Part shown: piece by piece, positions 20,375-22,083 of the stretch
Numbering within the stretch: position 1 is the first letter of the stretch
How the letters are laid out: each line of letters begins with the position of its first letter
UHGV virus genome: UHGV-1682877
DNA: 64,000 nucleotides
Direction: 5' to 3' (one strand)
Source of the DNA: a virus
Program-made: the position numbers and the translations under genes
Notes under the pieces: generated by a model
Database searches by the model: none
Told to the model about the DNA's origin: nothing
The model's input: only the letters and a program-made list of their open reading frames with translations

Positions 20375-21586
20375 ATGGCTACAAAAATTTTCAACCCTGT
20401 GAATATTCCTGTTATTTCTAAGTTGACTATTGGTGATAAGACCTATTACCTGAAGGACGCTGAAGTTCGTGCTCTATTAGAGACTCTTGGTAACGCTGCT
20501 CAGAAAGATGTGGCTGCTGGCGTTTCTGCTGAAGAGCAGGGCTTAGTTACTGGCGCTCAAGTTCAAGCTGCCATTGCTAATTTGACTAGTGCTATGCACT
20601 TCGTTGGTGTTAAGGAATCTTTGCCTGAGACTGCTAAAGATGGCGATGTTGTTATTATTGGTGTTAAAGAGTATGTCTATGCTAATAATGATTGGCATGA
20701 GCTTGGCGATGAGACCCTGTATGCTTTGAAGACCTTTAAGATTGGTACTCAGGATCTTTCTGGTACTTTCTCTTTGGATACTTTAAAGACTGATTTAGGT
20801 CTTGATGCTTTAGCTTATAAGAGTTCTGCTACTGGTACTGTTGCTGGTCAAACTATTACTGGTGTTAAGGCTACTGGTACTTCTGCTGGTAGTATTGAGG
20901 TTGGTTTAACTCAGACTTCTACTGCTGCTACTTTAACTAAGAGTGATTATACTCCTTCTGGTGATGTTACTGGTAGTGTGACTGCTGCTGGTTCTGTTAG
21001 TATTGCTAAGGATGCTGATAATGGTACTCAGATTTCTGGTAGCGTTTCTGCTCCTACTGTGACTATTACTCCTAATACTGATACTATCAAGAAGGTTACT
21101 TCTGTTGGTACTTTGCCTACCAAGGCTGCTGACCTCTTTACTGCTAATGGTGATGATACCTTTACAGCTGGTTCTCAGGCTGCATGGAGTGCTAATGTCG
21201 ATGATACATCTGAGACTTTAAGTTTCTCCTTCACTACTAATACTCTACCCACCTTCAAGCAGGGCGCTAAAGCTTCTTATACTGAGGGTACTTTCGATGC
21301 AGGTACGCTTCCTGAATTGGCCGCTGAAGGCACCACTGTTATGACTGGCGTTAAGAGTGCAGAGGCTTCTGCTCCTGTGTTCACTGGCGATAAGTTTGCA
21401 GCTTCCTTTACTGGTGCTTCCGCTGATATTACTGCTACTTTTGCTGGTGAGAAAACCTCTGTGGTTTCTGGTGTTAATTACGATAAGGCTACTGTTGATA
21501 CCTCTACGACTAAGTTTACTGGTGCTGCTATGGAATTGGATGTTGGTGATATTGCAGTTGCCGCCAAGAATGTTACTGTCCAGTAA
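20375..21586 (+). CDS. hypothetical Ala/Thr/Gly/Ser-rich protein, possibly structural; N-terminal domain shared with 21613 ORF
   Basis: 403-aa ORF; TAGGAGG SD; low-complexity T/G/A/S-rich body; locally GC-enriched codon usage; N-terminus YYLKDAEVRA. Confidence 0.65.
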   Translation: MATKIFNPVNIPVISKLTIGDKTYYLKDAEVRALLETLGNAAQKDVAAGVSAEEQGLVTGAQVQAAIANLTSAMHFVGVKESLPETAKDGDVVIIGVKEYVYANNDWHELGDETLYALKTFKIGTQDLSGTFSLDTLKTDLGLDALAYKSSATGTVAGQTITGVKATGTSAGSIEVGLTQTSTAATLTKSDYTPSGDVTGSVTAAGSVSIAKDADNGTQISGSVSAPTVTITPNTDTIKKVTSVGTLPTKAADLFTANGDDTFTAGSQAAWSANVDDTSETLSFSFTTNTLPTFKQGAKASYTEGTFDAGTLPELAAEGTTVMTGVKSAEASAPVFTGDKFAASFTGASADITATFAGEKTSVVSGVNYDKATVDTSTTKFTGAAMELDVGDIAVAAKNVTVQ

Positions 21587-21612
21587 TTAATTTTTAAAAG
21601 GATGGTGAGTAA

Positions 21613-22083
21613 ATGGCAAACAAGTTGATTTCTAAAGTCAATGTCGGTGGCGCCATTTACTACCTTAAAGATGAAGAAGTTAGAGCTGCGGTTTCTACAT
21701 TGCAAACCGCAGTTGCTTCTTCATTAGTTTTCAAAGGTGTAATATCAAGTGCTGCCGGAATCACTGGGTTAAAAAATTATAAAATTGGTTGGACTTATAA
21801 AGCAAATGCGGATTTTACAATTACTTCTATTGGTAAAATAGAAGCAGGAGATATGATAATTTGCATTAGTGATTATAGTTCAAACTACAAAGCAAGTGAT
21901 TGGACAGTGGTTCAAAATAATGTGGATACTATGACTGGAGCGACTTCCTCTACAAACGGTACTAGAGGTTTAGTTCCAGCACCTACTAAAACTGATATTT
22001 CTAAATTTCTTCGTGGTGATGGCACTTGGGCAGATTCTAGTGCTGAATCAACGTGGGGCAGAATTTCAGATTTATTAAATTAA
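21613..22083 (+). CDS. hypothetical protein sharing N-terminal domain with 20375 ORF
   Basis: 156-aa ORF; N-terminus YYLKDEEVRA parallels the previous gene. Confidence 0.6.
   Translation: MANKLISKVNVGGAIYYLKDEEVRAAVSTLQTAVASSLVFKGVISSAAGITGLKNYKIGWTYKANADFTITSIGKIEAGDMIICISDYSSNYKASDWTVVQNNVDTMTGATSSTNGTRGLVPAPTKTDISKFLRGDGTWADSSAESTWGRISDLLN

Follow-up and report, generated by a model that had tools for sequence, protein, structure and literature searches.

A shared N-terminal module in two adjacent fibre-like proteins of an uncultivated phage and its distribution in metagenomes

Two neighbouring genes in a 64,000-nucleotide stretch of the virus genome UHGV-1682877 (the window) raise the question of why two otherwise different proteins begin with the same short segment. 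The first gene (20375..21586, plus strand) encodes P403, a fibre-like protein of 403 residues, and the second (21613..22083, plus strand) encodes P156, a short fibre-like protein of 156 residues. Both open reading frames (ORFs) are present exactly where the original prediction, made from the letters of the sequence, placed a pair of fibre or receptor-binding proteins sharing a virion-attachment domain. We consider it reasonably probable that P403 and P156 are paralogous fibrous virion proteins with a common docking peptide, whose partner is probably a 168-residue adaptor (g168) encoded directly upstream.

The N-termini of the two proteins were predicted to be homologous, and this is borne out by BLASTP, by profile-profile comparison and by reciprocal hidden Markov model (HMM) searches. 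BLASTP aligns residues 13-57 of P403 with residues 5-50 of P156 (21/46 identical, E=3e-7), and a profile of P403 relatives aligns with one of P156 relatives over 37 columns (97.7% probability, E=2.3e-12). Among the 451 six-frame ORF segments of the window, an HMM made from the N-termini of the P403 family alone recovers P156 at E=7.8e-9. The reverse search with the P156 family recovers P403 at E=7e-8, and the next best segments have E>0.19. No ORF of the window besides P403 and P156 carries the module. The similarity is conserved across both families, each of which keeps the motif.

The earlier statement that the bodies of the two proteins differ is essentially right. The module is followed by a small beta domain ('hF+GV...GD..I'), which in P403 comprises residues 73-113 (20591..20713, plus strand; AMHFVGV...GDVVIIGVKEYVY...WHELG) and is the best-predicted part of the structural model of that protein. 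The likeness of P403 and P156 in this second region is weak (hhalign P ~1e-3, probability 9-20%), and a gapped BLASTP extension into it was seen with one P403 relative. We regard this similarity as suggestive only, too weak for a claim that the homology extends into the second domain.

The module is about 35 residues long and has the consensus [IL]-S-K-[ILV]-x-[ILV]-G-x3-Y-x-L-K-D-x-E-x-R-x2-[LIV]-x2-L. It occupies residues 13-40 of P403 (20411..20494, plus strand; VISKLTIGDKTYYLKDAEVRALLETLGN) and residues 5-34 of P156 (21625..21714, plus strand; LISKVNVGGAIYYLKDEEVRAAVSTLQTAV). The predicted structure is a beta-hairpin followed by a helix, located in the AlphaFold2 models at residues 15-26 and 28-41 of P403 and at residues 8-17 and 21-37 of P156. 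The helical part shows the a/d pattern x-E-x-R-A-h-h-x-T-L. P403 contains no cysteine and a single arginine, R32, which is the near-invariant arginine of the module. Across 29 aligned module codons, 16 encode the same residue and 7 of these 16 are the same codon; nucleotide identity is 55%. The differences in codons and the level of nucleotide identity mark the two modules as old paralogues held by selection on the peptide, and not as products of a recent duplication or gene conversion.

The module is common outside the window. A 38-position profile, searched against 1.84 billion representative proteins (E<=1e-3, with matches clustered at 50% identity), identified 478 protein clusters. The best 150 of these 478 clusters have proteins of 30-800 residues; all but four show a match that begins within residues 1-17, and in nearly all it spans residues ~1-40. 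The few exceptions that are not N-terminal resemble chance repeats (P0242). The bodies to which the module is joined are diverse: P403-like T/S/A-rich proteins of 380-485 residues, P156-like proteins with C-terminal extensions, long coiled coils (P0272, P0346) and an NAGPA phosphodiester glycosidase (P0384, Pfam E=1e-22). Two proteins (P0279, P0319) have two modules in tandem and then a large beta-rich body without a family match. Across the P403 superfamily no other segment is as well conserved as the module, which has a mean pairwise column identity of 0.56 vs 0.23-0.39. As judged from these sequences, the idea that the shared N-terminus behaves as a modular attachment element is supported.

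The same features could be read differently, with the module as an oligomerization or folding nucleus, a foldon-like N-terminal trimerization hairpin and coiled coil that starts fibre assembly and has no partner on the virion. The predicted hairpin and the helix with its hydrophobic a/d spacing would fit a short coiled coil, the module precedes many different fibrous bodies, and two tandem copies in P0279 and P0319 would be odd for a terminal plug. However, a trimerization unit need not lie at the extreme N-terminus, as the module does in nearly all of the best 150 of the 478 clusters, and known fibre trimerization elements are mostly C-terminal. Such a nucleus would also leave unexplained the strict linkage to a g168-like gene and the presence of several bearers side by side in one genome, both described below. 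We therefore consider it unlikely that nucleation is the role of the module.

The module itself is undescribed; the principle of shared fibre docking elements is already well known. We found no counterpart of the module in GenBank phages: tblastn searches with P403, P0258, P0262 and P0279 and a DNA search with the gene cluster gave no match among 50,697 GenBank phages, and the matches of P0272 and P0384 in these phages cover distal domains only. A Pfam scan of 75 module-bearing proteins likewise returned distal domains and did not match the module, and neither P403 nor P156 has a match in Pfam, NCBIfam or the sequences of the PDB. The PHROG matches of 75 bearers are mostly to families without an assigned function, and most of those that carry a name are labelled tail protein or tail fibre. 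One family without an assigned function, phrog_24103, is matched by eight module-bearing proteins. No relative was identified in GTDB genomes, hence these give no clue to a prophage or a host, and NCBI-derived cluster members have no protein names attached. Some module-bearing proteins are encoded on contigs too short for informative context.

P403 relatives are encoded in 25 IMG/VR loci and on several contigs of 104-222 kb from ENA, Logan and NCBI; samples with such contigs are faecal or from the rumen (for example ERZ28615099 and ERZ27279231). The P403-P156 pair is adjacent in 15 of the 25 IMG/VR loci, including one (L024) with a P403 that is 44% identical. Where P156 is absent, other module-bearing genes follow (L019/L020, L026/L027 and, by eye, L001), and tandem bearers also occur on unrelated contigs (L034, L035, L037). 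In the window, the gap between the two genes is 26 nucleotides and contains no terminator-like site. P156 has a Shine-Dalgarno site, GGATGGTGAG, ahead of 21613, and the fibre transcription unit is closed by an intrinsic terminator directly 3' of the P156 stop codon (22087..22127, plus strand; a 14-bp stem and a T run).

Adjacency of this kind would also be expected if P403 and P156 co-assembled through the module, for example in a mixed coiled coil with P156 as a cap, accessory or assembly factor, and were not separate fibres. The two genes are closely spaced without an intervening terminator, the pair is kept in most of the IMG/VR loci, and fibre assembly proteins are typically encoded directly downstream of the fibre gene. 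However, P156 is missing or replaced by other bearers in loci that keep P403 (L001, L013, L017, L019, L020), and it has fibre motifs and a variable tip of its own. Apart from what phylogeny accounts for, changes in one module are not mirrored by changes in the other; the co-variation seen between them within genomes is mostly phylogenetic signal and was not used. We consider co-assembly distinctly unlikely. The more specific proposal that P156 is a tail fibre assembly chaperone was rejected, as the protein has no chaperone match in Pfam, PHROG or NCBIfam and carries fibre motifs together with the module.

A homologue of g168 is found directly 5' of the first module-bearing gene in all close relatives, and likewise directly upstream in L024, L026, L029, L034, L036 and L037 (39-48% identity). 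Among the loci with upstream DNA available, a g168 homologue precedes the module-bearing genes in all but one. This consistent position makes g168 a candidate adaptor or partner. The g168 protein (19847..20353, plus strand; 168 residues) has a weakly Mtd_N-like N-terminus and a fibre-repeat-like C-terminus.

A 410-residue Mtd_N-type protein is encoded further upstream in the same cluster (18224..19456, plus strand). It contains GG.F repeats and by eye resembles a beta-helix fibre; in relatives it is 40% identical or absent, and it is a variable or replaceable member of the cluster. The N-termini of g168 and the 410-residue protein align with each other (BLASTP E=6e-4) as a common Mtd_N-like module. 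Pfam Mtd_N (PF18454) scores 21 bits for the ORF at 18224 and 13 bits for that at 19847, both under the cut-off of 26.3, and has no match at E<=0.1 in P403 or P156. The cluster therefore uses two N-terminal modules in parallel. Mtd_N is the N-terminal domain of the major tropism determinant of Bordetella phage BPP-1 and of hyaluronidase-type fibres. Like the module described here, it is a short N-terminal element on otherwise different fibres, and it occurs in the same gene cluster (at 18224 and, weakly, at 19847). However, P403 and P156 do not match it and the consensus motif of their module is unrelated.

Sequence and predicted fold support the assignment of P156 as a fibre-like protein. Its residues 33-140 are similar to a 'tail fiber domain-containing protein' encoded by Xanthomonas phage Rb1 and to Pseudomonas phage 'minor tail proteins' (tblastn E ~1e-4). 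A motif at residues 116-139 (21958..22029, plus strand; G-T-R-G-L-V-P-A-P...F-L-R-G-D-G-T-W) is common to annotated minor tail proteins of cultured Pseudomonas phages and to unannotated Leptospira phage proteins. Additionally, residues 54-141, which belong to the body and not to the module, match phrog_4302 (E=3.5e-10), a family without an assigned function. The AlphaFold2 model of P156 (predicted local distance difference test score, pLDDT, 77.9) has 16 fold matches in BFVD at E<=1e-3, the best at E=1.2e-6, but with low template modelling (TM) scores of 0.24-0.42. The named entries among them are mainly tail fibre, tail protein or hyaluronidase. We identified 167 homologues of P156. The C-terminal residues 125-147 are the least conserved, and relatives have insertions of up to ~290 residues.

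P403 has a different character. The original prediction described its gene as unusually GC-rich and of low complexity, which is correct and can be traced to amino acid composition. The GC content is 0.428 vs 0.301 +/- 0.042 in the other 55 ORFs, and the excess lies in codon positions 1 and 2 (second-position GC 0.50 vs 0.32). The cause is that 55% of the residues are A, G, T, S or V (T 15%, A 14%), vs 27% elsewhere. No significant internal repeats were found in P403. In four-fold codon families the gene has the most extreme third-position bias in the window (T 0.79 and A 0.04, vs 0.52 and 0.32). This bias and the AGGAGG ribosome-binding site (20358..20363, plus strand) suggest that P403 is highly expressed. 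The gap of 21 nucleotides to the upstream gene makes co-transcription with that gene likely.

We identified 1472 homologues of P403, the top 120 at 78-99% identity. Among the orthologues, conservation of the body (0.86-0.89) is on a par with that of the module (0.86), and variation is greatest at the two termini, in the small beta domain and just downstream of that domain. Between distant phages P403 is 71-83% identical, compared with 62-72% for P156, ~60% for g168, ~54% for a DUF2828 protein, ~41% for a 112-residue protein encoded beyond the terminator and ~40% for the Mtd_N fibre. P403 is thus the slowest-evolving and best conserved gene of the cluster, and we conclude that it is not a variable receptor binder. 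The view of P403 as a receptor-binding protein with a host-range-variable distal domain does not hold. What stands of the predicted fibre with a shared attachment domain is the modular N-terminus and the fibre-like character; distal variation is confined to the tip of P156.

A comparison at shorter range gives the opposite picture for the same gene. Compared with its counterpart (10001-11209) in the near-identical phage L005, P403 is the most diverged gene, with 7.9 differences per 100 nucleotides vs 0.7-4.1 for its neighbours and a hotspot at 21075-21275. Greatest divergence from a near-identical phage, combined with best conservation between distant phages, suggests at the sequence level that P403 alleles are replaced by recombination.

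The position of these proteins on the particle was considered from the context of their relatives, and a tail-associated fibre is favoured. In L037 the P403-type gene is located 3' of homologues of YomW, YomV_2nd and YomU_Tube, which are SPbeta tail genes, and 5' of two genes, one encoding an 843-residue Mtd_N protein and the other a product longer than 2135 residues. The gene for P0279 is located immediately 5' of a Dp1-type holin. No relevant account of an SPbeta virion structure that names YomU or YomV turned up in the literature searched.

The two proteins might instead be head fibres or capsid decoration, with the module binding a capsid protein. High expression, if it is correctly read from codon bias, and the extreme conservation of P403 would suit a decoration present in many copies. 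Several observations weigh against a tail location and in favour of this placement. Single entries among the matches are named for the head, one 'head decoration' and one 'minor head protein' in the PHROG matches of the 75 bearers and one 'head fiber' in the BFVD matches of P156. The Rb1 protein that shares the P156 beta domain is encoded between prohead protease and capsid assembly genes. In L001 and L026 the cassette comes after the terminase gene, a position uninformative on tail versus head. However, most of the named matches by sequence or fold are tail proteins, the neighbouring genes carry Mtd_N, a tail-fibre N-terminal domain, the L037 gene is situated between a tail tube and a giant tail-type protein, and P0279 is encoded before a holin. 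We regard a head location as rather unlikely.

In the window, and in L010, the cassette is found between tRNA arrays and replication or RNA-repair genes with no recognizable head or tail neighbours, which also counts against a tail fibre. Together with the finding of no experimentally characterized homologue, this setting would accommodate some other abundant product, intracellular or on the host surface, with the shared N-terminus as a targeting or regulatory peptide. The fibre motifs and fold of P156, its Mtd_N and beta-helix-like neighbours, the tail-module context of L037 and the pre-holin position of P0279 all argue otherwise, and by eye neither sequence has a signal peptide or a membrane segment. 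We consider a non-virion role very improbable.

Further results stand against our preferred reading of P403 and P156 as tail fibres docked through a shared peptide. P403 has no match in Pfam, PHROG, NCBIfam, PDB sequences or GenBank phages, and the P403 and P156 families have none by sequence in the PDB. A fold comparison of P156 with the PDB gave nothing significant (best E=0.048). The P403 model, built from a 24-sequence alignment, has a pLDDT of 40.6 and is too poor for a fold search, as the alignment drawn from the top 120 matches is too shallow. Finally, the candidate role of g168 as acceptor is drawn from gene adjacency.

Taking the preferred reading, a mechanism can be outlined. The module would be a docking element: the base of a presumably trimeric fibre, made up of three hairpins and a short coiled coil, would insert into a common acceptor on the particle. 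The likeliest acceptor would be the conserved C-terminal domain of the g168-type protein, whose Mtd_N-like N-terminus may anchor g168 itself to the particle. A single kind of site could thus carry P403, P156 and, in other phages, further bodies. In this scheme P403 would act as an abundant and conserved core fibre, and P156 as a short fibre with a varying C-terminal tip.

There is precedent for such an arrangement. In Klebsiella phage KP32, experiments have proven that mounting of the secondary receptor-binding protein, RBP2, requires a 29-residue N-terminal 'conserved peptide' and that this peptide is sufficient for it; in the podophages KP32, K11 and KP34 the acceptor of the RBP2 peptide is a branching domain of RBP1 that resembles T4 gp10 (PMC13352976). 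The module resembles this peptide in that it is a short, portable element at the extreme N-terminus, conserved before differing bodies and encoded beside its (here putative) partner. However, no sequence relationship was found or is expected. In addition, both bearers hold the peptide in the present case, no gp10-like domain was detected in the putative acceptor g168, and docking here is proposed for a large phage with an SPbeta-like polymerase, some relatives of which have SPbeta-like tail genes. In the multi-tailspike phages CBA120 (TSP1-4) and RaK2/phiK64-1, conserved N-terminal domains assemble branched fibres (PMC10253068). Those systems share with the window adjacent fibre genes with common conserved N-terminal parts, variable distal domains and, if our reading is correct, a multi-fibre adsorption apparatus. 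They differ in that the assembling units are folded domains of ~100 residues or more (D1, D2, XD) and not a hairpin and helix of ~35 residues, P403 has no variable enzymatic body, and there is no sequence relationship.

The design is biologically expected and no surprise. It is through modular N-terminal anchors that the host range of phages can be swapped, in nature as well as by engineering. The module is frequent in metagenomes (478 clusters, with >1400 close homologues of P403 itself on contigs that reach 222 kb) and belongs to large phages without a cultured representative. The module and its likely partner offer a concrete starting point for the annotation of fibre genes in these genomes and for predictions of gene exchangeability and, if a host is found, the module could guide the design of chimeric fibres. 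A more far-reaching proposal, which we put forward tentatively, is that the module and the g168-type C-terminal domain form an unrecognized but widely used plug-and-socket pair in a very large group of uncultivated phages of 110-220 kb, with P403 as an abundant core fibre whose alleles are exchanged by recombination between co-infecting phages. If so, any body could be mounted, be it an enzyme, a lectin-like domain, a coiled coil or a T/S/A-rich shaft, and allele exchange would explain why P403 is best conserved between distant phages yet most diverged between near-identical ones.

The fibre genes are part of a cassette (17895-24631) with ORFs of 89, 410, 121, 168, 403 and 156 residues, the terminator, and then ORFs of ~112, 419 and 249 residues. 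The mechanically called start of the gene after P156, 22088, falls within the terminator hairpin (22087-22117), and a promoter-like site follows at 22127-22156; the true start is therefore probably the ATG at 22190, which gives the 112-residue protein kept in relatives. The 419-residue product (22630-24631 region) is a radical SAM/SPASM peptide maturase with NCBIfam matches to PapB, SCIFF and CXXX-repeat maturases, all below the cut-off. The 249-residue protein that follows with a small overlap combines a long stretch of Cys-Xaa3 repeats, weakly matching 'Cys-Xaa-Xaa-Xaa repeat radical SAM target', with a non-Cys C-terminal domain. The fibre cluster is likewise followed by radical SAM genes in L003 and in the distant L036, where there are two copies. 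The pair may represent a phage-encoded cross-linked structural protein, or one resembling ribosomally synthesized and post-translationally modified peptides, that is tied to the fibre genes.

At the other end of the cassette, the 89-residue (17895-18164) and 121-residue (19460-19825) proteins both have hydrophobic-hydrophobic-D-G-G-x endings, IYDGGEVT and VVLDGGSAPTE, and no overall similarity to each other (BLASTP E>5). Their counterparts in L001 end likewise, in LVDGGGVPRF and LIIDGGGAPEA. Relatives also have insertions of homing-endonuclease-like genes. The gene for the large terminase subunit of L026 is interrupted by an HNH endonuclease (endonuclease-like genes at 4711-5853 and 11735-12448), and the second L026 endonuclease, like a gene of L001 (11322-12326, a nuclease by eye), is found directly after the P403-type gene. 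Endonuclease genes beside the P403-type gene indicate that the region is a target of mobile elements.

Two tRNA arrays with a total of 17 genes flank the cassette (14649-17659 and 25100-26358). The first contains a GIY-YIG homing endonuclease gene (16195-16842) and a tRNA called with a four-base anticodon (tgaa; 16876-16948). From 26.5 kb on, the window encodes RNA-repair and replication functions, including an RNA ligase, a two-subunit type II topoisomerase, a DNA ligase, a DnaB-type helicase, a primase, RecJ, a Dda-like helicase and NrdD. A 1279-residue polymerase matches a PHROG 'DNA polymerase' family. The GC content is ~30% across the window, and nearly all ORFs of more than 100 residues are on the plus strand. 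The source is a large (~140 kb) uncultivated low-GC phage. The product of an ORF at 28149-29210 is subtilase-like and carries an S-layer homology (SLH) domain at its C-terminus, which hints at an S-layer on the host, possibly a Gram-positive, S-layer-bearing bacterium.

Stop codon usage differs between the window and some of its relatives. The stop codons of the 57 window ORFs examined are 48 TAA, 9 TGA and 0 TAG, and reading through TAG in the window revealed no new genes and no genes with in-frame TAG. In several relatives (L001, L006/L008, L019/L020) the corresponding fibre genes contain numerous TAG codons in frame, 38 of them in the L001 locus, and TAG is recoded in these relatives.

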